Assembly (NCBI GenBank): GCA_049671285.1
Contig: JBATUQ010000052.1
Span: forward strand, 15,774-79,773
Origin: Leeuwenhoekiella sp.
GTDB lineage: Bacteria; Bacteroidota; Bacteroidia; Flavobacteriales; Flavobacteriaceae
Direction of reading: 5' to 3'
DNA length: 64,000 nucleotides
In this document: piece after piece, positions 25,981 through 41,817 of the stretch
How the letters are laid out: every line of letters begins with the position of its first letter
Position numbering within the stretch: the stretch's first letter is position 1
The notes under the pieces: generated by a model
Told to the model about the DNA's origin: nothing
The model's database searches: none
Seen by the model: only the letters and a program-made list of their open reading frames with translations
Program-made: the position numbers and the translations under genes

Positions 25981-26361
25981 TCAAAATGGATTTAAAAGCT
26001 GTAAATCCGTAATACTTTGGAAATCCTTAATGTTTCGAGTCATCAAAGGAATGTCAAAACTCAATGCAGTAGCAGCAATAATCGCGTCAGGCAGTTTGGT
26101 TGAATATAATTTACGAATGTCTGCAGTTTGCAATTTAATTGCTTTGTTGAATTCAATTACTTCACATTTTTCAAGAAATTCGTTCAGCATTCTGATATCC
26201 TCTTCTTCATCAGATTTCCAAGAAAGAAGCTCTATTTCTGAAATTACAGAGATGCAGGGCTGCCACTTGTCGTCGGTTAAAGTTAACTTGGGAATGTCAT
26301 TGAGGATAATATTCCTTGAAGGAAGTAAATGACAATATTTGTGTCCCAAAGATACTTCACT
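25981..26361 (-). pseudogene. vapC: PIN-domain (VapC-like) toxin gene disrupted by a single-base frameshift
   Basis: The canonical PIN N-terminus VKYLWDTNIVIYFLQG starts at a GTG overlapping the antitoxin stop (GTGA). It runs only 25 codons before a stop. The rest of the PIN domain (NIILNDIPKLT...WQPCISVISEIELL...LPDAIIAATALSFDIPLMTRNIKDF) continues in another frame. The join implies one missing A in GGAAATATT, now GGAATATT, at about 26310-26316. The listed ORF 25981-26394 has an artificial N-terminal extension. Confidence 0.65.
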
Positions 26362-26563
26362 CCCAACCCGCTCGAAGTTCATCCAATTGCGCATCTACTT
26401 GATCCATAGATTGTTTCTTCATAGAACCGGCGTAATCTTGCCAATTGCTCTTTTGATTTTGGCTTTCTGTGGTTCTTTTCAGACGGATCAAGTTTAATGA
26501 TTCCAAATTCTCTAGAATTTTCAGAACTCCGTTATTCAGTATTTCTATCGTAATGCTGTTCAT
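26357..26563 (-). CDS. Putative type II antitoxin partner of the PIN toxin
   Basis: 68-aa ORF (MNSITIEILNNGVLKILENLESLNL...) immediately upstream of the PIN toxin, with a 4-bp stop/start overlap. Probable start at the internal ATG. Family not recognisable. Confidence 0.45.
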   Translation of the reverse strand: MNSITIEILNNGVLKILENLESLNLIRLKRTTESQNQKSNWQDYAGSMKKQSMDQVDAQLDELRAGWE

Positions 26564-30781: not shown

Positions 30782-31105
30782 TTACTTAATTTCAGATGAT
30801 CTTATTGCTGTTCCAGATGCCACAATGAAAAGCATAGATTTTCCTCCACCAGAAAATTCACTATAATCTAAATCTACTCCGATAACTGCATTGGCTCCTA
30901 CTAAAAATGCCTCTTTACGCAATTCGTTAAGGACTGTTTCCTTTGACTCGCGAAGAGTATTTTGTAAAGTTTCACTCCGACCTCCAATCACATCACGAAC
31001 TCCTGCAAATAAATCCTTAAAAACATTCATTCCAAAAGCACATTCTGCTGTTAATATATCTATTCGTTGATCAATTTTAAAGTCAACGTGACTTTCTGTG
31101 GTCAA
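30782..31105 (-). CDS. YbjQ/UPF0145 (DUF74) domain protein
   Basis: [35 protein letters not shown]...[34 protein letters not shown] aligns along its length with E. coli YbjQ. The TTG start is listed, but the frame stays open upstream to 31270 (see the zinc-ribbon finding). Confidence 0.7.
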
Positions 31106-31515: not shown

Positions 31516-34500
31516 TTAAGAGCCCTTCCCCAACCCCAACTTCAATACCTCCTTAATCCCTTCCAGATTCTCCGAAAATTGCATCATCTGGCTAAGCATT
31601 TGGGCCATTTCATTTTTGTCGCCAAAGCCTTTCAACTTGTTGTTTTTTACAAAAGTTTCCTTGATGGTATTCCAGCGCTGGGTTTCTTCGGGGTTGAGCG
31701 TGCCGGTGAGTTCCTTGTATTTTAAAATGTTGGCTTCCGCAGAGGCGGTCAGGGTTTGTGACTCGCTTTCGTAATGCGAAAGCAACAGCGTATCGAGTTC
31801 GCGGTCGTTCATGATCGGGACGACCTTGGCGACCAGTTTGTTCATATCGCGGTAGGAGCCCTGCAGTTTAAACGACGGTTCGGTGCGGTATTCGTCCTCC
31901 ATCGCCGCACTTTTGATGTAGGCGGCATTCACCTTCAGCACCGTATTCCTGATCTTGACCACCTTTTGCAGCACCGCAACATATTCCGCAATCTCCTGAT
32001 TGCTGTGGTTGCCGCTCAGTTGGGCTTCCTGATTGTTGTTTTCCACCCGGTCCAGCAGCGTATACACATCGTCAAAATGGCTGCTGCTCAATTGCTGCAG
32101 GATTGGGTTTGCGGTCAGCGAGTTTTCGATCAGGCTCAGGTTAAACAGATGCGCGGTATCGCCTATGATGTCTCCCAGGTTGTAAATATCTGCCCGGTTC
32201 GCCAACATATCTGGGATGCGGAACTTCTCCCCGCTCTCTGTATATGGGTTCCCGGCCATTATCACGCAGAATTTCTTACTGCGCAGGTCATAGGTTTTGG
32301 GTTTGCCGTTATACACGCCTTCTATTTTTCGGGTTCCGTCAGAAAGTGAAATAAATTTCTGCAAAAACTCCGGGTTGCAATGCTGAATGTCATCCAGATA
32401 AAGCATCACGTTGTTGCCCATCTCAAAAGCAAGGTTCAATTTCTTGAGTTCTTCCCGCGCGGCAGAATTGGTCGCACTCGCAGGATCTACTGAAGTTACC
32501 TCGTGTCCTATCGCCGGGCCATTGATCTTCATAAAAATTAGGCCAAGCCGATTCGCGATATATTCCATCAAGGTAGTTTTCCCGTAGCCTGGCGGCGAAA
32601 TCAACAACAGCAAACCCATTCGGTCGGTGCGTTTGTTGTCGCCCACGGTGCCCAACTGTTTCGCCAGATTGTCACCAAAAAGCGGAAAATATACCTGATC
32701 GATCAGTTTATTCCTAACGAAAGAAGTCAGCACCCGCGGCTTGAATTCTTCCAGTTTGAGTTGTTCTTTTAAATCTTCGGTTACCTGATGTTTGGCCTCG
32801 CGAAAAGCTTGAAAAGCGGGTACATCTTCGGCTACAAAAGCAGACAAGGTCGCCGTAAAATCGTGATAATTGAATTCGAAATTTCCTTCTGTGATTGTCG
32901 AATGGCTTCCGCTCAAACCACTTATAGTGGCACTTGGCGAAGTCGCTTCTACCTTAGAAACCGACGCATCCGAAAATAGCAACGCACAGACCACCTCATC
33001 GATATATCGTGATTTCTGCGCTGTCGAAAGTTGAGTTCCATTCTGGTAAACCGTATTGACGAAGGCAGAAACCCACTGCCGCGTCAACTTTATCATTTCC
33101 GAGAAGTCGGGAATCTTCTCAATACTTTTACGAAATTTTAAATCTGCTTGTTGCTCCTTCAGGTGTTTCTCAAAAGCTTCTTTGATGGATATCGCCAAAT
33201 GACTTTGCGCAAATTGATCGTCGTTTTGCAATTCCTCAAAAAGATAGTCAGCGATATTTTCGCCTAGAGCGGAATCAAAAAGTGTGGTCGCTTTAGAAAA
33301 ATTTTCGATCTGTCGGGTTAATTCCTTGATTAAAAAATCATATTCCCGCGTCTGCGGAAAATACTGCAACACCTCCCCGGAAGCTTTAATGCTCTGATCG
33401 AGTTGTGCTTGTTTCGCGGCTTCGAGACTGTTCCAAAAATACTGCGCAAACGCCCTGATCTCCGGCCGAAACCGCAACAGTCCCAACGAATGGTGCTTGT
33501 TGACCAACGTCGCCAAGATTTCTGCGGCATCGCGATCGTGCACGCCTTTTACATACCCTTCGGCATAATCGCTACTGCTTTCTTGCTGCACGATTTTAAG
33601 CAGTTCTTCTCCCGTTTTATCATACAGCTTTTCGGTACCAATCTTTTGAAATAATTTATACGCTAAATAGGCCGACCTATACACCTGATCGTTTTCAGAA
33701 ACCAGTTCCTGATCCCAGAGGTTTCGCGAGTTAAGCAAAATGGGATTGTCCAGTTTTTGGTAGAAATCCGTTCCGGTAAGGTGGTAATTAAGTTCGCCGT
33801 TTTTTAAAACGATCGTGAGATCGAGTTGCTGTTTATTGACCCCAAATTTGTGCTTGCCGAGTTTGATGACATTTTCGCCATCTTCATACAGATCCTGTTT
33901 GTCCTTGAGTTTGCGCAGCGCATCTTCGCGGGCGGTTTTGAGTCCGGTTTCAATTTCTTCGGCTTTACCGCTATCATCGAGATCTTTCAGCTGCTGCACG
34001 ATGTCGCGCACCTTGTTGATCATCAGGTCTGCGGCAAAATATCCGTTAATTTCTGTGGCAGTCTTAAAACTTTCGACCTTCTTCCGCACGCCTTTTAAAA
34101 TACGTTCGGAAGCATTTTGCAAAGCCATTGCACGCTTGTTGCGCTTTTCGACCAAGGAGTTTTTCCGGGCATCAAAGGCATTGTACACCTCTTCCCGCTT
34201 GTCGATAATCTCCGAAATGAATTCTTCGAAATCAGCAAATTTCCCTTCCAACTCTTCCAGCTGAATGGTGATTTTATTCTGAAACTCGTCGCATTTTTCG
34301 GGTGTATCTGCGATGTCCAGATAGTTGATGATGCTCTGATCGATCAACTTTAACTGCGCGGCAAAATCAGCTTGGGCTTCGGCGCTTCCCAAGGATTTCC
34401 GCTTATTGCGCAAAGCGGCTTTTAGCTGGTTTAGCGTGGCAAAAATCAGGGAAATATTATCGATGATTTTGGTTGAATGCGCCGTATCCTCAATCTCTAA

Positions 34501-36417
34501 GTTGGAAACGATATCGATCAACAATTCGAGGTCTGCCGCGATCTGATTGACTTCTTCTTCCAGTTTTTTGGCCTCGATTACTTTTTCTATTCCATCCAAA
34601 GCCTTTTGCTTTTCAGCGACTTTAGCGTGGTACGGTTGCAACGCTTTTTCGTCCAATAAAAACTGAACACAACGCTTGGAGATTTTCTGGGATTGTTCTG
34701 CAATATCGCTTTCAAGTTCCTCAGTGAATTTTAGATCGACATAACGGATTTCGCGTAAGCTGATCACCTCGCCACGCAAACTGCGCAACTGAGTCAACAC
34801 CGCAACAAACTCATCAATACTTCGGAAAGAGGTGCTTTTGATTTTACTAAAAAGTGCTTCCGCTTTTTTCCGGATTTCATCCGTTTGCTTTTTGGCATTT
34901 CGGCGCAGCTGCACCACTTTTTGGAATTCATCAATCGCAGCATTTGCAGCCTTATTGATTTCACCAAGCGGCTCGTTTAACTGTTGCGTTTCCGCCTCTG
35001 GCAACCAATAATAAGCGTCGAGAATATCCTTGGACGATTTGGCAATGTCGCTGTAAAGTCCGTCGTAACTGTCCTTTTTATTGAGCAAGGTAACCAGGGC
35101 ATTGACCTCTGCCATCGCCTTGACAATATCCTTGTTTCCTATTTTATAAAGCAGGGTGTCCTCGTGCTGCGACGGCATAAAATCCCCCTTGATAAAAGGC
35201 GTCTGCCAGATCTGAACGGTGTGGTGCTTGGTCTGCTCCTCTTCGGTGCGGAAATAACAAAGTTCACCATTCTGTAGCACTGTAAAACCGTTACAGATGA
35301 TGGGTGTTTTAATTTCCTGCGAAATCACATTGTAGGACATCAAATTGTACAGGCCTTCTTTGGAAGAATAAAAAATGTACAAAAAATCCTCACCGTTAGG
35401 AGAAGCAATGCGCCCCTGAAACTTTACGTCTGGAATCGAATTATCAAATACATTGTACTCGCCCGTTTGCAAATAATAACCCGTCGGAAAAATAATCCCC
35501 TGATCCTCGGGAAGCAAAACGCAGGCATCTTTTATACTCGCGATTTTCTGAACTTCCTTGAGTTTGTGGTTGTAAACAAAATAGCGGGACGGCTCCTGAA
35601 AAGGCTTGATTTCTAAAGCGATCAGATTGCCAAGATCGGCAAAACGGTACTGCCCGTCATCGAGCGTCTGGTCGTAGTGTTCCACCGTCTCTGAGAAAAT
35701 TCCTTTACCATCATCGGTGTTGTCCTCGATTTTAATGGTGAGGTCACCGCCTACCGCTTCCACAAAAACCTTGTCTGCAATCGATACGTGCGGATGTGCT
35801 CCATAACGCTGGTTATCGCGACCCGCTTCCAACCACTTAAACTCATGCTGCGCCGGAAACCGGAACTCGTGATCGCTTCGGTTGTCCACATAATCCAAGC
35901 GGTTTTCCTTGATCAGCCATTTAAAGGTTTTGATGTCGGTGACGCTTTCGCTCAGCTGAAAAATCATATGCAGATAGTTGCCAATGACGGCGAACTTTGC
36001 AAAAATGGTGTTCCGGTAGTATTTGTAAAGGTTGGTAAAATCGGTTTTAAAGGTGTCGTCATTTAGCAACCCAAGATCAAGCGGTTCGAATCGATTGTCT
36101 TTAAATTCATAAACGCTAAAAACATCGGAAAGTGTGATTTCCGTACGCAGTCCAAAATGCACATTGTACCCGAACAGGCAAGTATCTCCCAGCGACACAA
36201 TATCGCGGGCGATGCAATTGTTTTCGGTGTTGATTCGGTCATTGGCGATCAGTTTCGTTTCCAGCGACCCAAAGACTTCCTGGCGGTCAATATTCAACTG
36301 CTGTAGCCGTTCCTGAAGATCGACCTTCTGTTTCTGCAGCCGGTTTTGAATGATCTCGTAGGTGCCGGAGTCCAGTGTATTGTTATTACTATTTTTATTG
36401 GTATTGTTTTCTGACAT
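31516..36417 (-). CDS. Giant (1633 aa) protein with a C-terminal MoxR/AAA_5-like AAA+ ATPase domain and a ~1250-aa uncharacterised N-terminal region (beta-rich segment then long helical/coiled-coil region)
   Basis: The only P-loop is LLLLISPPGYGKTTLMEY near residue 1290. Walker B region VMLYLDDIQHCNPEFLQKFISL has D-D rather than D-E. Sensor/Arg region KKFCVIMAGNPYTESGEKFRIPDMLANRADIYNL matches the MoxR/AAA_5 pattern (xATxNPxExxGxxxLPxAxLDRF). Residues ~450-1150 are Lys/Glu/Leu-rich helical. It is the last gene of the pspA-flotillin operon. Confidence 0.85.
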   Translation of the reverse strand: MSENNTNKNSNNNTLDSGTYEIIQNRLQKQKVDLQERLQQLNIDRQEVFGSLETKLIANDRINTENNCIARDIVSLGDTCLFGYNVHFGLRTEITLSDVFSVYEFKDNRFEPLDLGLLNDDTFKTDFTNLYKYYRNTIFAKFAVIGNYLHMIFQLSESVTDIKTFKWLIKENRLDYVDNRSDHEFRFPAQHEFKWLEAGRDNQRYGAHPHVSIADKVFVEAVGGDLTIKIEDNTDDGKGIFSETVEHYDQTLDDGQYRFADLGNLIALEIKPFQEPSRYFVYNHKLKEVQKIASIKDACVLLPEDQGIIFPTGYYLQTGEYNVFDNSIPDVKFQGRIASPNGEDFLYIFYSSKEGLYNLMSYNVISQEIKTPIICNGFTVLQNGELCYFRTEEEQTKHHTVQIWQTPFIKGDFMPSQHEDTLLYKIGNKDIVKAMAEVNALVTLLNKKDSYDGLYSDIAKSSKDILDAYYWLPEAETQQLNEPLGEINKAANAAIDEFQKVVQLRRNAKKQTDEIRKKAEALFSKIKSTSFRSIDEFVAVLTQLRSLRGEVISLREIRYVDLKFTEELESDIAEQSQKISKRCVQFLLDEKALQPYHAKVAEKQKALDGIEKVIEAKKLEEEVNQIAADLELLIDIVSNLEIEDTAHSTKIIDNISLIFATLNQLKAALRNKRKSLGSAEAQADFAAQLKLIDQSIINYLDIADTPEKCDEFQNKITIQLEELEGKFADFEEFISEIIDKREEVYNAFDARKNSLVEKRNKRAMALQNASERILKGVRKKVESFKTATEINGYFAADLMINKVRDIVQQLKDLDDSGKAEEIETGLKTAREDALRKLKDKQDLYEDGENVIKLGKHKFGVNKQQLDLTIVLKNGELNYHLTGTDFYQKLDNPILLNSRNLWDQELVSENDQVYRSAYLAYKLFQKIGTEKLYDKTGEELLKIVQQESSSDYAEGYVKGVHDRDAAEILATLVNKHHSLGLLRFRPEIRAFAQYFWNSLEAAKQAQLDQSIKASGEVLQYFPQTREYDFLIKELTRQIENFSKATTLFDSALGENIADYLFEELQNDDQFAQSHLAISIKEAFEKHLKEQQADLKFRKSIEKIPDFSEMIKLTRQWVSAFVNTVYQNGTQLSTAQKSRYIDEVVCALLFSDASVSKVEATSPSATISGLSGSHSTITEGNFEFNYHDFTATLSAFVAEDVPAFQAFREAKHQVTEDLKEQLKLEEFKPRVLTSFVRNKLIDQVYFPLFGDNLAKQLGTVGDNKRTDRMGLLLLISPPGYGKTTLMEYIANRLGLIFMKINGPAIGHEVTSVDPASATNSAAREELKKLNLAFEMGNNVMLYLDDIQHCNPEFLQKFISLSDGTRKIEGVYNGKPKTYDLRSKKFCVIMAGNPYTESGEKFRIPDMLANRADIYNLGDIIGDTAHLFNLSLIENSLTANPILQQLSSSHFDDVYTLLDRVENNNQEAQLSGNHSNQEIAEYVAVLQKVVKIRNTVLKVNAAYIKSAAMEDEYRTEPSFKLQGSYRDMNKLVAKVVPIMNDRELDTLLLSHYESESQTLTASAEANILKYKELTGTLNPEETQRWNTIKETFVKNNKLKGFGDKNEMAQMLSQMMQFSENLEGIKEVLKLGLGKGS

Positions 36418-36756
36418 GCTTGGGCTTTGTTAAAGACCTGCAAGGTTTTGCCAACCTTGTAGGTCTGTCTTACCTGATTGAGCAAGGGAGACCTACAAGG
36501 ATCGCTCGTTCCTCGCTCATACCTTGCAGGTCGGGGCAACCACCCCGGTTTTCAGCTGCGCTGAAAAATTCCCCTCCTTAATTAAGGAGGGGAGCCTTTA
36601 GCATTTTCATAAATGAAAATGTGTTGAAGTCAATTTATATTACAATGCAATTAATTGCATTGGCGTGCAAAAGCTCCCCTCCTTTTCCCTTCGACTAAGC
36701 TCAGGACAAGCAAGGAGGGGACCGTTAAATCAAAGATTTAACAGGGGTGGTTTTGC
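36418..36756 (-). promoter_or_regulatory. Highly structured 339-bp intergenic region (nested inverted repeats, twin GC-rich hairpins, terminator-like element) between the flotillin gene and the giant ATPase gene
   Basis: Four 11-12-mers in alternating orientation: GACCTGCAAGG (36435), CCTTGTAGGTCT (36455), AGACCTACAAGG (36489) and CCTTGCAGGTC (36512). They allow either 1:2+3:4 or 1:4+2:3 pairing. CCCCTCCTT-AATT-AAGGAGGGG (36572-36593) is followed on the transcribed strand by AATTTTT. A second CCCCTCCTT...AAGGAGGGG copy (36676-36720) has a 29-nt loop. Further palindromes: CATTTTCAT-AA-ATGAAAATG, CAATGCAATTAATTGCATTG, GTTAAATC-AAA-GATTTAAC. Confidence 0.6.
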
Positions 36757-38823
36757 CTACTTCATCTTCACCCCGTCAATCCCAAGACCTTTGGCCAAGT
36801 TTACTAGGTTACTGAACATGGTCTTTTCTCCAGGGTCTCCAGAACGATCTCTTAGTTGCAGAAGCACATTGGCGATGGTCAGGTTCTTGATATCTTCGGA
36901 GGAAACTCCGTATTTATCTGCGAACTCTTTGACTTTGGCCAATAAATTACCCTTTACATCATCGCTGCCCAAAATGGCGTCTTTGACCTCCTGAATGTTA
37001 CTGCTGTTCTGAACTAAACGGTCGAAGCCTTTACCTTTTGTGATCTGGCCTATGATCTGATCAAAGAACATCGTCTCACCACCTACGATGTCGATTTTAG
37101 CTGCTTTCAATGCATCACCAATCACCTGAGCCTGTGCATCAGCAATGGCTTTCTGGATGTTGATGTGTGCCAGATCCACCTGAAGTTCCTTATCCAAACG
37201 CAATTTGAATTCTTCGTGCTCTTTACCAACACCATCCAATTTCTTCATCGCGTTGGCTTTTTCTTCGATACCGGCGGCATCGGCAATGGCCTTCTCCCGG
37301 ATTACGTCTGCTTCAGCAAGGCCGTCTTTACGCTTGGCGTCAGCCTTTGCGTGAATTCCGGCGGCTTCCGCCAATGCCATTTTCTCAATGATGGAAGCTT
37401 CCACGATTCCCTGACGTTCGTTGGCATCTGCTTTGGCGTGCATTACCTGAGCTTCAGACATACCAACGGTTGCTTCTTCCTTGGCTTGTGCTTCGGCCAG
37501 AATCTTACGGGCTTCTGCCTGTTTCTGGCTGGCTTCTTTGTGAGCTAAGGCTTCAATGTTTATCTCTTCTGCTTTTTGCTTGGCTGCTTCTTTTTGGGCT
37601 TCCGCTGCTTTGGTGGTTTTGATTAAGTCTTCTTGAGCATTCGCTTCGGCAACGGTAATTTTCACCTGCTTGTCCCGGTCGGCAGTTTTAAAGGCCTGAA
37701 TGTCCTTCATATTCTCTTGTTCTTCGACCACTCCTTTTTCGAGCATCACCCGGTCGCGAATCACATCCTGAATGTTTTTCTTTTCGACCTCAACCACCTT
37801 CTCTTTTTCGATCTGCGCCAAAGTGACGACGCGTTCCCTTTCGGTAGCTTCCAAGAGACGGTCTTTTTCAACACGCTCGGTTTCTACGGCATCTGTTCGT
37901 TCCTTGTTTTTAGATGCAACAATGATCTGACGCTGCATGTTTTCTTCGGCTACTTTTACTTTTTCCTCGGTGGCCAGTCTTGCAGTTTCCGATTTTAGAC
38001 GCTCCTCTTCACGGACCTTTAAAGTCTCTGCTTCTTCACGGGATTTAATGTTGGCAATCTCACGCTTCTGCTGCTCTTCTTTTTCAGCCAATTGTTTGTC
38101 GAGTTCGAGAATGGCTTCCCGCGCTTCCACATCTTGTTTACGGATGGTTTTTTCCTCGTCGCGCTTGATCAGGTTGGCCTTTACGTTTTGGGCTGCGGTG
38201 AGTTCGGTGATTTTCTTGATACCTTCCGCGTCCAAAATATTGTCCGGTTTTAAAACCGAAACTGAAGTCTGCTCCAAAAAGTCGATAGCACAATCTTCAA
38301 GCGTATAACCATTAAGATCGGTGCCGATGATATCTACAATTTCGTCACGAAATTCCCGACGCGCTTCATACAGCTCAATAAATTGAAATTTCTTTCCAAC
38401 AGTCTTTAAGGCTTCGGAAAATTTAGCTTCAAATAGATCCTCTAAGGTTTCGATTCTTGATGCGCGTGCCACACCAATGGTCTGCGCCACTTTCTTAATA
38501 AAGGAAACATCGTTGTTTACCCGAACAAAAAATGCCACTTTGATATCGGCCCGCATATTGTCCTTACAGATCAATCCTTCCACACCCAGACGTTCTATCT
38601 GGATTTTCTTGACCGAAATGTCCATGGTTTCCACCCGGTGAAAAACCGGAACGACATACAGACCTTTATCTGTCGCGACTTTGGTGCCGCCAAAACCGGT
38701 CCTGACTAAAGCTTGACCTTGATGCACTTTTTTGTAAAACATCGCGATGATCGCGAAGTAGACGATGACTAGAAAAAGGAGTCCGCCCAAAGCCAAGCCT
38801 ACAATTTGTAAAATACTTTCCAT
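36757..38823 (-). CDS. Flotillin-like SPFH/band-7 protein (YqiK/FloT type) with long EA-rich coiled coil
   Basis: N-terminal TM helix, SPFH domain (residues ~30-250), then ~350 aa of Glu/Ala/Lys-rich heptads (EAQKEAAKQKAEEINIEALAHKEASQKQAEARKILAEAQAKEE...) typical of flotillins. 688 aa. Confidence 0.85.
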   Translation of the reverse strand: MESILQIVGLALGGLLFLVIVYFAIIAMFYKKVHQGQALVRTGFGGTKVATDKGLYVVPVFHRVETMDISVKKIQIERLGVEGLICKDNMRADIKVAFFVRVNNDVSFIKKVAQTIGVARASRIETLEDLFEAKFSEALKTVGKKFQFIELYEARREFRDEIVDIIGTDLNGYTLEDCAIDFLEQTSVSVLKPDNILDAEGIKKITELTAAQNVKANLIKRDEEKTIRKQDVEAREAILELDKQLAEKEEQQKREIANIKSREEAETLKVREEERLKSETARLATEEKVKVAEENMQRQIIVASKNKERTDAVETERVEKDRLLEATERERVVTLAQIEKEKVVEVEKKNIQDVIRDRVMLEKGVVEEQENMKDIQAFKTADRDKQVKITVAEANAQEDLIKTTKAAEAQKEAAKQKAEEINIEALAHKEASQKQAEARKILAEAQAKEEATVGMSEAQVMHAKADANERQGIVEASIIEKMALAEAAGIHAKADAKRKDGLAEADVIREKAIADAAGIEEKANAMKKLDGVGKEHEEFKLRLDKELQVDLAHINIQKAIADAQAQVIGDALKAAKIDIVGGETMFFDQIIGQITKGKGFDRLVQNSSNIQEVKDAILGSDDVKGNLLAKVKEFADKYGVSSEDIKNLTIANVLLQLRDRSGDPGEKTMFSNLVNLAKGLGIDGVKMK

Positions 38824-38835
38824 TAAATTGATTGA

Positions 38836-39561
38836 TTAATTAGTTTCGTTATATAGTTGAACCAGATATGAGTGCTTATCTGAAGAACGTTTAATGATCA
38901 AAATTTCACTTCCATATGTAATTGGCGTACCATCTAGTGATTTGACGTAGATCGCCATAGGGTTGCCGTCTGCTAGAATTTCTGCGTTACCCATCTTATC
39001 TTCTGAAATCGTGGATAGCAAAACTCCCTTTCGGCCCAAATAATCCACAGGCGCATCCCCATCCTTATTCAGGTTTTTAAAGAAGCTCTTAAAAGGAGAT
39101 GTAAACAGCTTATTGAGGATCAATGCTGGAAAAAATCCAGCAATCATGATCACAAACCCCAAATAGTTGTCATAGGTAAAGGTTAATGCGGTCGTCAACG
39201 TGGTAATCGTCCACCAAATGAAAATCCAGCAAGTGAAGGTGAACATAAACGGCAGTCCGACAAAGTTGAAATAAATCAAAAATACCTGCCACCACTTTAA
39301 TTTGCGCTGCCTTTTGCCGATGACGTGATCTTTGTCAACTTCCACATTGGATACGTCCTGAAAGTCCATATTACCTCCTTCCAAACCGGTATCGATGTCA
39401 ACATCAGCGTCGATATCAACATCGACCTCGACATCAAAATCGAGATCAAAATCGATACCGCCTATCATCGTGATCAACCAGTAGATGATCAACAAAGAGA
39501 GCAATAACGTCAATATAATGTTGACCTCAGAAAATAATATGTTCCATAAATTTGTATCCAA
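38836..39561 (-). CDS. NfeD/YqiJ-like (DUF1449-type) inner-membrane protein with a C-terminal OB-fold, partner of flotillin
   Basis: Multiple TM helices. The C-terminus YLGRKGVLLSTISEDKMGNAEILADGNPMAIYVKSLDGTPITYGSEILIIKRSSDKHSYLV looks like the NfeD short-form beta-barrel. It sits immediately upstream of flotillin, as in yqiJ-yqiK and nfeD-floT operons. It also contains an alternating hydrophobic-Asp stretch IDFDLDFDVEVDVDIDADVDID. Confidence 0.6.
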   Translation of the reverse strand: MDTNLWNILFSEVNIILTLLLSLLIIYWLITMIGGIDFDLDFDVEVDVDIDADVDIDTGLEGGNMDFQDVSNVEVDKDHVIGKRQRKLKWWQVFLIYFNFVGLPFMFTFTCWIFIWWTITTLTTALTFTYDNYLGFVIMIAGFFPALILNKLFTSPFKSFFKNLNKDGDAPVDYLGRKGVLLSTISEDKMGNAEILADGNPMAIYVKSLDGTPITYGSEILIIKRSSDKHSYLVQLYNETN

Positions 39562-39563
39562 GG

Positions 39564-40280
39564 CTATCCCTCTTTTGTATTGTTAAGGCCCAGTTGGGCT
39601 TTTAGTCTTTCCAAATCGTCGTCGGCTTTGGCAACCGTGGTATCGGCGGCCTTGTCAAGTTCGTCATCAATGCTTTTTGAGGCATTGGCGATATCGCCGT
39701 AAGCCTCCGCAAGAGCTTCTTCCTGAGCGACCTTTTCCTTCATACGCTCCAGCATTGAAACCGTACCGCTGCTGTCAATTTCAGACATCTGCTTGTTCAG
39801 GTTTTTAGTTGCCGTGCTTACTTTTACGCGTGCTTTGAGCGTTTTAAGTTCGTTTTCCCAGTTGCTGATATTCGACTTTATGGTTTGAATATTCTTCTGT
39901 AGTTGAGCGACATTAGTATCAAACTTATCAGATTCCTTTTTTGCACGGTCCACGTGCTGCTGGGCTTCTTCTTTTTTGGTCAAAGCCTCTTTCGCCAAAC
40001 GATCAGCTTCGGCAGCATCCATCTCTTTGCTGTGCGCTTTTTTGAGGATGATGATGGCCTTGCTCTGGTAGTCTTCGGCTTTGTTTAAGTATTCGTCCTG
40101 GTCGTTCTTCGCACGAATTGCCAAGGCTTTGACCTGCGCGAGTGCTTCCAGGCTTTTCTCGAGATCCGCTTTCATATCGCGAATGCCCTGCTCGGTCATC
40201 TTGATGGGATCTTCCATATTGTCAATGGCCGAATTGGCTTCGGCCTCGCCTATCCTAAATAATCTTTTAAAAATGTTCAT
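39564..40280 (-). CDS. pspA: PspA/IM30/Vipp1-family protein (bacterial ESCRT-III superfamily)
   Basis: MNIFKRLFRIGEAEANSAIDNMEDPIKMTEQGIRDMKADLEKSLEALAQVKA follows the PspA consensus (M-IF-R...EDPEKML-Q-IRDM). 238 aa, all-helical, heptad-rich. Confidence 0.85.
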   Translation of the reverse strand: MNIFKRLFRIGEAEANSAIDNMEDPIKMTEQGIRDMKADLEKSLEALAQVKALAIRAKNDQDEYLNKAEDYQSKAIIILKKAHSKEMDAAEADRLAKEALTKKEEAQQHVDRAKKESDKFDTNVAQLQKNIQTIKSNISNWENELKTLKARVKVSTATKNLNKQMSEIDSSGTVSMLERMKEKVAQEEALAEAYGDIANASKSIDDELDKAADTTVAKADDDLERLKAQLGLNNTKEG

Positions 40281-40287
40281 GGTTCTT

Positions 40288-40325
40288 ATTATTACTATTG
40301 TTATTGTTATTGCTATTGCTATTCT
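40288..40325 (-). repeat. (TATTGY)6 on plus strand = (RCAATA)n in pspA sense, ending 8 nt before the pspA start codon
   Basis: TATTACTATTGTTATTGTTATTGCTATTGCTATTC. In the pspA-sense RNA it reads as ARN triplets (AAU AGC AAU AAC ...). Confidence 0.7.
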
Positions 40326-40399
40326 TTACTTGAGTAGGTTTAGAAGGAGTTTTTTGATTCTAGTCTCATATCTCATGTCTAAATTCTAATATCACATTT

Positions 40400-40795
40400 T
40401 CAATATTTACTGAACTCAATAATTTTGTCTGAATATTCACTCATTAATAGGCTTAGCGAATTCAGGCTGCCTTCGAGTTCGTTGAGATCCAGGTTTTCCA
40501 GCTGAAGCGTGTCCCGAAAAATTACCTTCTCGCCAGATTCATCAAGGACGAAAGCGCCGTGAATGATGTCCCTGTTTTTCTGAAGCAGGCTTTTGAAGAT
40601 TTTTTCGTTCTGGTTTCTAATTTTAAAAATGAACTGCTCCATAATCAGAATGGGTTCTGAAACGCCAAGGATCAAATTGTGAATACCAAAATTTTCCTTC
40701 TGAACGACTAGTATTCCGTCTTCCCGGTTTTCCTTGGTAATGTTGAAATTCAGTTCCAGCAGAAATTCTTTGGTGATGTTGAAATGATTTTTCAT
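40400..40795 (-). CDS. Small cytoplasmic protein, possibly YbjN-domain (T3SS-chaperone-like) family; first gene of the pspA operon
   Basis: 131 aa, mixed alpha/beta composition. Its size and its position directly upstream of pspA fit YbjN-like proteins. No diagnostic motif, so the family is a guess. Confidence 0.35.
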   Translation of the reverse strand: MKNHFNITKEFLLELNFNITKENREDGILVVQKENFGIHNLILGVSEPILIMEQFIFKIRNQNEKIFKSLLQKNRDIIHGAFVLDESGEKVIFRDTLQLENLDLNELEGSLNSLSLLMSEYSDKIIEFSKY

Positions 40796-40920
40796 CGATT
40801 GGTGTTGTTGATTATTATCAAAATTTTCAGCGGTTTAATACTACGAAAAAACTGTTGGAAAAATGCTAAAAATAATCCTTGGCAATGGTAATGAGGTAAA
40901 TAATAATGTTCATCATAATT

Positions 40921-41055
40921 GATTGATTTTTGATTGATCACAATTCTAGGACTGTTTTTTATCCTAATAACATTAGCATCTGTTAATCTAAATTGCTAAT
41001 ATTGTTAGTCAAATATACCAATAAAAATTAGTATTGCAAATTTTATTAGCAATTT
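40921..41055. promoter_or_regulatory. Divergent promoter/operator region between the pspA operon and the XRE regulator gene, with repeated TTAGCA(A)/TTGCTAA half-sites
   Basis: ATTAGCA-N15-TGCTAAT inverted repeat (40972-41001). More TTGCAAA and TTAGCAA copies at 41035-41052, ending 4 nt before the regulator start. TGATTGAT-TTT-TGATTGAT direct repeat at 40921-40939. Confidence 0.35.
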
Positions 41056-41817
41056 ATGTCCTATTTTGGAAAGAACATCAGAAAAATAAGAAGTGTCAAG
41101 ACCTTAAGTCAACAAGCATTTGCGGAGCTATTTGATTTAAAGAGAGGGACTTTGGGAGCTTATGAAGAAGGGAGAAGCGAACCTAAAATAGAAACGATAA
41201 TTAAAATTGCTAACTATTTTAGCATACCTATTGACGATTTGCTGACTAAAGAACTTACGGTAAACCGTTTGCTAAAGTTTAAAGGAGAACTGGCCATTGA
41301 ATCAGAAATTGAAAAACCACAAGCTTTAGCAGGTATCCCGCTAATCACTGAAAACAATACGGAAGATTATCTCTTACACGGCTGCAAGCCTGCTTTTATA
41401 AAGGATATGCAATTTATTAAGCTTCCACTAAATCCTGAGAAGGATTTTAGAGGGTATACCGTGAACAACCTGGAAATGGGAAGCTACGATAACGGACTAT
41501 TTCCCAATGACATCGTGATTGGAGAGCGCGTACCGCAGGAAGCGTATAAAAAATTAAACAAAGGAACACTGGTCTTCGTCATCGTGGAAGGAAAAATAAT
41601 CTTACGACGGCTATTTACCCTCAAAGAAAATTGTGTCCTGCGTGCAGATCATAAAAACGTCAGCGAACTAACATTTCCATTGAACGCCATTTCAGAAATG
41701 TGGCGGGTGCGCTATGTTTTTTACAGGAGGCTACCCGAGATGGGCTCAGACCTTGAGCAAAAACTTGAACTCCTCAAAATTGAGATAAGGGATGAACTTA
41801 AACGAAGTTTAAATTAG
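41056..41817 (+). CDS. XRE-family HTH transcriptional regulator with a C-terminal S24 (LexA/CI)-like beta-barrel domain lacking an obvious Ser-Lys dyad
   Basis: The N-terminus IRKIRSVKTLSQQAFAELFDLKRGTLGAYEEGRSEPKIETIIKIANYFSIPIDDLL is a Cro/C1 HTH. The C-terminal 130 aa follow the S24 peptidase fold pattern (GIPLITE...RGYTVNNLEMGS...NDIVIGERV...GTLVFVIVEGKIILRRLF). NNLEM stands in place of GDSM and RR in place of the Lys. It is divergent from the pspA operon. Confidence 0.7.
   Translation: MSYFGKNIRKIRSVKTLSQQAFAELFDLKRGTLGAYEEGRSEPKIETIIKIANYFSIPIDDLLTKELTVNRLLKFKGELAIESEIEKPQALAGIPLITENNTEDYLLHGCKPAFIKDMQFIKLPLNPEKDFRGYTVNNLEMGSYDNGLFPNDIVIGERVPQEAYKKLNKGTLVFVIVEGKIILRRLFTLKENCVLRADHKNVSELTFPLNAISEMWRVRYVFYRRLPEMGSDLEQKLELLKIEIRDELKRSLN

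Follow-up and report, generated by a model that had tools for sequence, protein, structure and literature searches.

A conserved six-gene PspA-flotillin module with a giant AAA+ ATPase and a LexA-like divergent regulator in Leeuwenhoekiella

Relation to described systems

The closest described system is the CesT/Tir-PspA operon (ANH61663.1) with three further genes reported by Ravi et al. (mSystems 2024 9:e00847-23, section 19; PMC11237479; bioRxiv 2020), and the locus of Leeuwenhoekiella sp. analyzed here is that operon class in a sister genus, not a new system. It occupies positions 31516-41817 of a 64,000-nt stretch of contig JBATUQ010000052.1 (hereafter the window) and is a genuine, conserved module of six genes encoding a repressor, a chaperone-like protein, PspA, a YqiJ-like membrane protein, a flotillin and a giant AAA+ ATPase. 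In the published Table S3, the row for ANH61663.1 from Dokdonia donghaensis DSW-1 has an identical architecture, including the divergent "cHTH+Protease" regulator (PMC11237479). The Dokdonia and window operons share all six genes, their order and their orientation and come from one bacterial family, and other Dokdonia isolates have giant proteins with 78% identity to that of the window. The two do not differ in kind; the window genome has an expanded gap of 119 bp between the CesT and PspA genes and, ahead of the giant gene, a hairpin insertion of 339 bp. All traits of the class are found in the window locus: a CesT gene upstream of PspA, a YqiJ/YuaF-type protein with three transmembrane segments, an SPFH protein with a coiled coil, a propeller-coiled-coil AAA+ protein and a divergent regulator. 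The initial annotation held this combination to be unnamed, but the operon with its regulator had already been described, computationally, by Ravi et al., who also drew the analogy to Snf7/Vps4 and noted that abbreviated operons without PspA are more widespread (PMC11237479). Their paper contains no operator, promoter or regulator dyad analysis and no experiments; new here are a phylogenetically footprinted promoter with flanking operators, the dead dyad of the regulator and the recognition of the spacer as a lineage-specific insertion.

Several better-known systems resemble parts of the locus. In NfeD-SPFH pairs such as E. coli yqiJ-yqiK and B. subtilis yuaF-floT, a protein with three transmembrane segments and an oligonucleotide/oligosaccharide-binding (OB) fold is encoded directly upstream of a flotillin-type gene, as in the window, where 12 bp separate the two; the classical pairs differ in having no adjacent giant AAA+ gene, PspA or XRE regulator, and the YqiJ-like protein of the window is too divergent for the Pfam models that fit them. 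The bacABCDEF operon of Pseudomonas aeruginosa has a CesT/Tir-fold gene directly upstream of a PspA-family gene, again as in the window, although its CesT protein belongs to subfamily DUF2170 (YjfI) and not CesT_Tir_1, its partners are polyamine-metabolism proteins and its proposed control is by sigma-54, not by an XRE repressor. BacA has a CesT-like crystal structure and its authors cite unpublished evidence of strong BacB binding; the Bac partner proteins accumulate in a bacA mutant, and BacA appears to act negatively on the operon (PMC10948618). The canonical Psp system is represented by a PspA_IM30 member, and no PspF, PspB or PspC match to Pfam or NCBIfam was found in the six proteins or the immediate flanks. 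In the ESCRT machinery of archaea and eukaryotes, an ESCRT-III protein is served by the AAA+ ATPase Vps4, and here too an ESCRT-III superfamily protein, PspA, is encoded together with an AAA+ ATPase; the giant ATPase is nevertheless no Vps4 homologue, being a protein of ~1,600 aa that carries a propeller as well as a long helical arm. Its AAA+ module comes nearest, though weakly, to MoxR, RuvB and dynein-type folds, and flotillin co-occurs with the protein more consistently than PspA does. PspA/Vipp1 is now recognized as bacterial ESCRT-III, with the control of PspA polymer dynamics at stake, and, according to a review of 2025, an ATPase of the Vps4 kind "appears absent in bacteria" (PMC7619361).

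Gene order and conservation of the module

Gene identities were assigned by open reading frame (ORF) calling and Pfam, and the ORF listing returned all five minus-strand genes and the divergent plus-strand gene just as they had been annotated. The intergenic gaps, in operon order, are 119, 2, 12 and 339 bp; the last three had been given correctly, whereas the CesT-PspA gap falls outside the 2-12 bp initially claimed for it.

The giant protein has at least 3,994 homologues. Its N-terminal 1,200 residues matched 1,416 clusters formed at 50% identity, 431 of them at E <= 1e-30, and full-length relatives reach down to 26% identity. When one genome of each species was scanned from a profile seed, at least 585 relatives were confirmed, and 80 loci were fetched; the six-frame ORFs of 82 loci were then searched with iterated hidden Markov models built from the window proteins, 66 of these loci having at least 6 kb of sequence upstream of the giant gene. 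The full set of divergent XRE gene and CesT-PspA-YqiJ-flotillin-giant operon is present in 34 of the 66, the YqiJ-flotillin-giant triad only in 25, and YqiJ and flotillin genes stand directly upstream of the giant gene in 62 overall, with flotillin lacking YqiJ in one more. The genes form a conserved module, and their co-occurrence extends beyond the single genome. A divergent regulator with a cHTH and a protease-like domain accompanies every full locus (34/34), a CesT gene is found in 34 of the 66 loci with a PspA gene adjoining it in every case, and the regulator is tied to this pair, both members being present in 34 of 35 regulator-bearing loci.

The 34 full sets are all from Bacteroidota (Flavobacteriaceae, Weeksellaceae, Cytophagales, Sphingobacteriales, Bacteroides/Tannerella and Owenweeksia), and those with the triad alone belong to Planctomycetota, Verrucomicrobiota, Kiritimatiellota, Desulfobacterales, Clostridia, Saprospiraceae, Pontibacter and Dysgonomonas. 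Taken together, the 62 YqiJ-flotillin-giant loci cover at least six phyla (Bacteroidota, Planctomycetota, Verrucomicrobiota, Kiritimatiellota, Desulfobacterales and Clostridia). Since the triad alone is the majority pattern outside Bacteroidota, the YqiJ/flotillin pair, and not PspA, is the primary partner of the giant ATPase, its ancestral and near-universal one. Three genes make up the ancient core of the module: those of a membrane protein like YqiJ/NfeD, of an SPFH scaffold of the flotillin type and of the soluble giant ATPase. The PspA-CesT-XRE part is a Bacteroidota add-on.

Further hosts of the giant gene detected by tblastn are Proteus, Pseudomonas, Vibrio, Halomonas, Streptomyces, Nonomuraea and Deinococcus. 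On the 425-kb plasmid pQBR103 of P. fluorescens SBW25 (L083 record, 84437-97641), a YjfI-type CesT-PspA pair and an SPFH-giant pair lie in one co-oriented run. CesT-PspA pairs of two types have hence been combined with the SPFH-giant pair on at least two occasions, which argues for a real functional link. The order of the plasmid run is YjfI, PspA, rhomboid, DUF2491, DUF350, DUF1190, glutathionylspermidine synthase, a hypothetical protein, SPFH and "DNA repair ATPase"; it fuses two operon classes that were treated apart by Ravi et al.

The giant protein is 70-78% identical across Flavobacteriaceae. In Christiangramia forsetii and Echinicola arenosa, precomputed annotations contain six genes identical in kind with unrelated flanks. 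The giant protein of Echinicola (Cytophagales, L002) is 71-72% identical to that of Flavobacteriaceae, compared with ~47-52% for other Cytophagales (Pontibacter, Hymenobacter and Nibribacter) and 62-64% for Flavobacterium, a genus of the window organism's own family, a distribution that suggests lateral transfer of the six-gene module into Echinicola.

The giant ATPase

The giant ATPase (1633 aa; 31516-36417, minus strand) begins with a helix, followed by a modelled beta-propeller (DUF3686) and by helical bundles and coiled coil that include DUF7902; then come a small beta domain and a helical domain, and the single AAA+ module is followed by C-terminal helices. Pfam matched DUF3686 (residues 33-470, E 3e-180), DUF7902 (591-675) and AAA/AAA_5 (1270-1394), and the AAA+ module is accordingly not its sole recognizable domain, as had been assumed. 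AlphaFold2 models built on 50-sequence alignments (40-80% identity) reached a predicted local distance difference test score (pLDDT) of 86.4 for residues 1-720 and 83.3 for residues 721-1633. The N-terminal model has a helix at 17-49, strand groups at 55-405 and long helices thereafter, the strand groups making up a propeller of about seven groups of about four strands each (35203-36255, minus strand); in the C-terminal model, a long coiled coil is joined by one small beta and one helical domain as well as the single AAA+ module. Foldseek searches of the PDB with the N-terminal part placed propellers on top, namely the WD40 domain of DCAF1 (E 1.3e-6), Elp1, IFT-A, prolyl oligopeptidase and Vps18, and the helical arm gave matches to helical-bundle and spectrin-like folds. 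No solved structure of the family was found by PDB sequence search, no transmembrane segment or protease domain was detected in the protein, and no papers were found under the name DUF3686.

The AAA+ module (residues ~1260-1500; 31918-32640, minus strand) contains a Walker A motif GYGKT (K1280), a Walker B motif LYLDD (D1342/D1343), the sensor-1 residue N1390 and R1408 within NPYTESGxxFxIPDMLANRAD. Walker A GYGKT, Walker B LDD, the sensor-1 Asn and the Arg are invariant in 34 homologues at 29-50% identity, and this invariance down to 29% identity makes it likely that the ATPase is active. The Pfam scores are 30.3 bits for AAA_5 (cut-off 22) and 32.2 for the generic AAA model, some homologues are labelled "MoxR-like ATPase" by the Joint Genome Institute (JGI), and the best target TM-scores of the module are those of NorQ/CbbQ (0.45-0.54, at E >= 3e-3). 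Members of the MoxR class (RavA, NorQ and CbbQ) likewise have a single AAA+ module, and the motif given above has the shape of their NPxxExG...LPxAxLDRF. Unlike in that class, no VWA-domain partner is encoded at the locus, the module carries an N-terminal fusion of ~1,250 residues and the Walker B residues are Asp-Asp; the matches are weak, and the class is matched no better than RuvB or dynein. The label "MoxR-like" is plausible for the module but not established, and assignment to any single AAA+ clade was rejected: the fold matches are weak and mixed, and a PDB sequence search returned only the P-loops of p97, Rix7 and NSF.

The giant proteins of Planctomycetota, Acidobacteriota and Sumerlaeota have a C-terminal extension of ~150-250 residues that is missing in those of Bacteroidota. 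The extension is made up of a linker of low complexity and, in three of five proteins (P0279, P0337 and P0306), a helical tail (e.g. ITVVNKxPRSxxNVLxxQFxLMxxWMxPLL), which is weaker in P0281 and absent from P0141; similarly long giant ORFs occur in most PspA-less triad loci of Planctomycetota and Verrucomicrobiota. One homologue of 1950 aa also matches the HEAT/armadillo-type repeat models PF02985, PF13646 and PF13513, and a full-length homologue in a eukaryotic protein set (eukprot g33011.t1) may reflect contamination or transfer.

The YqiJ-like protein and flotillin

The 241-aa YqiJ/YuaF (NfeD-like) membrane protein (38836-39561, minus strand) has one transmembrane segment, an acidic linker, two further transmembrane segments and a C-terminal beta-rich OB-like domain. 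The window protein itself has no direct Pfam match; among its positional orthologues, nine of 27 match YqiJ_N and one of 27 matches NfeD, and the top PDB match of the family profile is B. subtilis YuaF (2k14, E 0.028). These matches, with the three hydrophobic segments, uphold its initial designation as an NfeD/YqiJ-like membrane protein. Its Hymenobacter orthologue is entered in RefSeq as "DUF1449 family protein".

The flotillin-type SPFH protein (688 aa; 36757-38823, minus strand) has an N-terminal membrane anchor, a Band_7 domain (residues 32-215, E 5e-14), a long E/A/K-rich coiled coil and a C-terminal region. It does not match the Pfam Flot model and no solved structure for it was found by sequence, but its Band_7/SPFH domain, anchor and coiled coil agree with the annotation as a flotillin.

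The CesT-like protein and PspA

The first gene of the operon encodes a CesT/Tir-like chaperone-fold protein of 131 aa (40400-40795, minus strand) that matches Pfam CesT_Tir_1 (PF22550) over its full length with E 6e-56. It had been described as a small alpha/beta protein, possibly YbjN-like; the best match is CesT_Tir_1, and the match to YbjN is weak (E 2e-5). The second encodes PspA/IM30 (238 aa; 39564-40280, minus strand), the bacterial ESCRT-III, whose initial identification is secured by a PspA_IM30 match with E 4e-43. It has an N-terminal amphipathic helix (MNIFKRLFRIG...) and matches Vipp1/PspA structures over its full length, this helix included (E 5e-17); its score against the TIGR02977 equivalog is 55 bits, the cut-off being 243.

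The spacer of 119 bp between the two genes (40281-40399, minus strand) is lengthened in this lineage, the gap being 2-19 bp in most relatives. A degenerate trinucleotide run lies within it at 40300-40345, with AAT alternating with AGC, AGC, AAC, AAC and AGT and followed by AAT AAT AAG.

The divergent regulator and the control region

The divergent XRE regulator (253 aa; 41056-41817, plus strand) consists of a helix-turn-helix (HTH) domain (residues 5-66), a LexA/S24-like beta domain (~95-235) that is non-catalytic and a C-terminal coiled-coil helix. As a single sequence it matched Pfam HTH_19/HTH_3, the XRE-type HTH being its sole Pfam identification and in accord with the first assignment. 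In an alignment of 29 orthologues, the HTH is near-invariant, the middle part is beta-rich and variable, and the C-terminal helix is amphipathic. Of the top 13 PDB matches to the profile of the middle domain in the C-terminal half, 12 are LexA structures (E 0.0017-0.064), and hhalign of the domain against E. coli LexA gave 84.5% probability over residues 113-183. Pfam Peptidase_S24 matched the single sequence with E 0.24 at best, and the evidence for an S24 fold is therefore moderate. In the alignment, Ser119 of LexA is replaced by Gly in the window regulator (Ser/Thr in some relatives) and Lys156 by Arg. The "degenerate S24" domain of the initial annotation is thus backed both by the LexA profile matches and by the lost Ser and Lys. 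Given these two replacements, self-cleavage is not expected, and the domain should be an S24-like one that does not cleave itself. In RefSeq, the Hymenobacter orthologue is named "LexA family transcriptional regulator".

The locus resembles LexA and lambda CI in the combination of an N-terminal DNA-binding domain with an S24-like domain, in the divergent layout and in palindromic operators over the promoter; it differs from them in its XRE HTH, in Gly/Arg instead of Ser/Lys and in the extra C-terminal coiled-coil helix. The conserved control region between regulator and operon (40964-41055, minus strand) comprises the operator half-site ATTGCTAATA (41044-41053), a promoter with a -33 element TTTG (41037-41040), a 19-nt spacer and a -7 element TATATTTG (41010-41017), the second half-site TATTAGCAAT (40992-41001) and a third near-palindrome CTAATAACATTAGCA (40964-40978). 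The half-sites, to which the regulator is presumed to bind, are part of a perfect 12-nt inverted repeat, AAATTGCTAATA / TATTAGCAATTT (40990-41001 / 41044-41055), which is kept across genera and substantiates the operator-like repeats noted initially. The block is common to 15 aligned genera (e.g. Echinicola, Bacteroides and Owenweeksia), with the consensus (XRE start) - TTGCTAAT - nnn - ATTTGCAA - N19 - TATATTTG - n - CTAACAATATTAGCAA - ... - GCTAATnTTnTTAG. The housekeeping promoter consensus of Bacteroidota is TTTG-N19-TAnnTTTG; exact matches to TTTG-N17-21-TANNTTTG number three in the whole window, one of which is the operon promoter. By their placement in the conserved block, the half-sites bracket the operon promoter and abut the regulator start codon, a layout classic for repression with autoregulation, which the regulator would exert by binding them.

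Proposed working of the module

Our preferred reading, which we hold to be rather probable, is that the locus is an orthologue of the published operon class acting at the inner face of the cytoplasmic membrane in the manner outlined below; it is most likely a repressor-controlled membrane-stress or maintenance module. We propose that the regulator dimerizes via its S24-like domain and C-terminal helix, binds the half-sites and represses the operon and probably itself. Because the Ser/Lys dyad is lost, induction would proceed not through LexA-type self-cleavage but through a ligand, a partner or a protease. The CesT-like protein would bind PspA and either block its polymerization or deliver it, by analogy to BacA-BacB of P. 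aeruginosa. YqiJ and flotillin would form a membrane-anchored scaffold and PspA would polymerize on the stressed membrane; the giant ATPase would attach itself, through propeller and helical arm, to the assembly of flotillin and/or PspA and spend ATP on remodelling or recycling it. In this particular genome, the giant gene is probably expressed at a lower level, or in an uncoupled manner, owing to the hairpin insertion with its terminator-like stem-loop. We infer that the ATPase is a remodeller of flotillin/PspA assemblies.

In a stronger version, the giant ATPase would be the missing ATP-driven remodeller of membrane scaffolds in bacteria, a functional counterpart of Vps4 without homology to it, which takes apart or recycles cages of flotillin and also, in Bacteroidota and some Proteobacteria, polymers of PspA, with a LexA-like repressor that cannot be cleaved sensing an envelope signal. 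All the evidence here is compatible with this version, which Ravi et al. had put forward in outline, but it seems unlikely to us as a whole. The motor idea of the initial annotation had already been published as an analogy, and "Vps4-like" is valid for the giant ATPase as an analogy only; a Vps4-like role on PspA is less well supported than a flotillin-linked one because PspA-CesT-XRE is a Bacteroidota add-on.

Several observations weigh against the preferred reading. PspA is missing from the triad in 25 of the 66 loci and is therefore not an obligatory substrate of the ATPase. Pfam found no MIT or Vps4_C match in the giant protein, and the Foldseek matches of its AAA+ module in the PDB are weak (E >= 1e-3) and mixed, including dynein, RuvB, MCM, NorQ/CbbQ, ClpB/Skd3 and Mdn1. 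Its Walker B motif reads LDDIQH (residues 1342-1346, ~32380-32394), with Asp-Asp in place of the usual Asp-Glu, and is invariant in the 34 homologues; with such a motif, hydrolysis might be slow or regulated. The flotillin-giant junction is often split by unrelated genes or IS200-like transposases and here holds a terminator-like hairpin, so co-transcription of the giant gene is not assured, and no exact Bacteroidota-type promoter is present in the spacer. No experimental paper on the operon class (expression, interaction or phenotype) was found.

The partners of the giant gene also bear on the main rival account, which we consider doubtful, in which the flotillin/YqiJ scaffold would corral and regulate the ATPase, whose clients would be other proteins or complexes in or beneath the membrane, to be assembled or extracted by it, with PspA being merely a co-induced membrane stabilizer and no substrate. 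An SPFH cage enclosing an AAA+ machine is an established arrangement, that of HflK/C-FtsH, where, at the inner membrane, an SPFH scaffold and an AAA+ machine are functionally coupled, and the near-universal partners of the giant gene are YqiJ and flotillin, not PspA; NorQ and CbbQ, moreover, are among its best structural matches, and such MoxR-class enzymes mature other protein complexes. The likeness to HflK/C-FtsH is one of logic only. FtsH is a membrane-anchored AAA protease, in contrast to the giant protein with neither protease domain nor transmembrane segment, the VWA partner expected of a MoxR system is absent from the locus, and the independent joining of two CesT-PspA types to the SPFH-giant pair points to a direct tie with PspA.

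Among genomic candidates for a partner that acts on flotillin and PspA scaffolds with ATP, this operon class is the clearest, and it bears on the turnover of bacterial ESCRT-III and flotillin assemblies. It also offers experimental handles for Flavobacteriaceae or Bacteroides that are amenable to genetics: its promoter with the operators, the repressor with its dead dyad, the Walker and sensor residues that do not vary, and the division into a core triad and a Bacteroidota add-on.

The spacer between the flotillin and giant genes

The 339-bp spacer (36418-36756, minus strand) is hyper-structured, with nested hairpins, one of which (36570-36593) is terminator-like and followed by a T-run. The minimum free energy (MFE) of the spacer RNA is -146 kcal/mol, as against -90.8 +/- 5.7 for shuffled sequences (z = -9.7), which confirms the structured spacer, like its length, as initially annotated. 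Six inverted repeats were found in it, and of all terminator-like sites in the 11 kb scanned the best is the hairpin, on the coding strand with a 10-bp stem, six GC pairs and a T-run. A search of 84 related loci and of the rest of the window gave no homologue of the spacer, and the flotillin-giant gap of relatives varies from -11 bp to >2 kb (-11 to 160 bp in many), for which reasons the idea of a conserved regulatory element was abandoned. The spacer is an insertion specific to the lineage, at a site where insertions recur, and it may lower expression of the giant gene in this genome. Neither the spacer nor the operon leader matched Rfam at E <= 1, and a riboswitch or other known RNA was rejected for both.

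That the giant gene might be uncoupled here from the four upstream genes altogether, with the hairpin ending the transcript and the gene being silent or separately expressed, we regard as quite unlikely, even though the best terminator-like site of the region lies in an extremely structured spacer that is missing in relatives and sits at a junction of recurrent insertion. The giant ORF is intact, 100% identical to a deposited protein and has all its conserved motifs, and the gene order is kept in other genomes despite inserts of 0.5-2 kb, which points to selection for linkage. A scan for sigma-70-type promoters gave 24 against 17.6 +/- 3.8 in shuffled sequences, not above background; with no consensus promoter in the spacer, read-through is the simplest route to expression of the giant gene, which argues against uncoupling.

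Between the flotillin and giant genes of three distant lineages, Saprospiraceae, Wenyingzhuangia and Roseibacillus, lie IS200-like Y1 transposase genes (Y1_Tnp, E 7e-6 to 7e-21; L017:5662-6186, L055:9316-9813 and L073:6802-7251), and lipoprotein or membrane-protein ORFs occupy the junction in other genomes. It is a recurrent insertion hotspot, perhaps owing to hairpins 3' of the flotillin gene. The window spacer looks like nested palindromes of the repetitive extragenic palindromic (REP) or miniature inverted-repeat transposable element (MITE) type placed 3' of the flotillin gene; its motifs CCCCTCCTT/AAGGAGGGG, in paired copies, and GACCTRCAAGG occur nowhere else in the window.

Genomic context

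The flanks of the locus encode NAD-dependent DNA ligase (ligA), YbjQ, a fatty-acid hydroxylase, MazG, peptide deformylase (def), RuvX and DapD, and the flank on the regulator side is syntenic in two other Leeuwenhoekiella genomes. The accessory-looking context described initially is not clearly borne out, given these housekeeping flanks, and an accessory island is ruled out on the regulator side by the syntenic genes.

The context also speaks against the initial reading of the locus as a candidate defence system. An anti-phage or abortive-infection role under a phage-repressor-like regulator could draw on the CI/LexA-like architecture of the regulator, whose HTH resembles those of restriction-modification control proteins and of CapH in PADLOC, on flanks that differ between genera and on the apparent lateral acquisition of the Echinicola module. 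PADLOC-DB 2.0, however, has no model for the five structural proteins: none matches the CesT, YqiJ, flotillin or giant proteins, PspA gives coiled-coil noise only (JetC/LmuB, E >= 8e-5), and the regulator yields generic HTH matches only. By tblastn, the giant gene was found in no phage record and in 13 of 72,556 plasmid records, mostly megaplasmids or chromids. The locus proteins bear no nuclease, toxin or sensor-NTPase signature, the housekeeping flanks are syntenic within the genus, and the identity of the giant protein across the family, cited above, is atypical of fast-evolving defence genes. A defence system was accordingly rejected, and we judge this role very improbable.

A DNA-repair or SOS-like function can be dismissed almost entirely, for it draws on a database name, weak RuvB matches over the Walker A motif and the LexA-like domain of the regulator, while no DNA-binding or nuclease domain was found in the giant protein, its conserved neighbours are all membrane proteins, the regulator has no Ser/Lys dyad for RecA-stimulated self-cleavage and the likeness to RuvB is confined to the P-loop. 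The name itself merits flagging as misleading. The giant protein is 100% identical to a protein from a Leeuwenhoekiella metagenome-assembled genome entered as "DNA repair ATPase", and the family names "DNA repair ATPase" and "ATPase involved in DNA repair" in NCBI, UniRef and the Pfam description of DUF3686 are an uncurated legacy label. They are probably misleading, as neither domain content nor gene neighbourhood lends them support, and a DNA-repair role taken from the name was rejected on the same grounds.

On the other side of the locus, 3' of the giant gene, the stretch at 28.7-31.5 kb has a low GC content (0.36 at 30-32 kb) and contains short ORFs only, together with the YbjQ gene (30782-31105); two of the ORFs (121 aa and 94 aa) were scanned and had no Pfam match. 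Synteny with other Leeuwenhoekiella loci is lacking here. Further out, at 25981-26394, there is an ORF with a PIN domain that, with the low-GC stretch, may correspond to the decayed region and toxin-antitoxin pair of the initial annotation.

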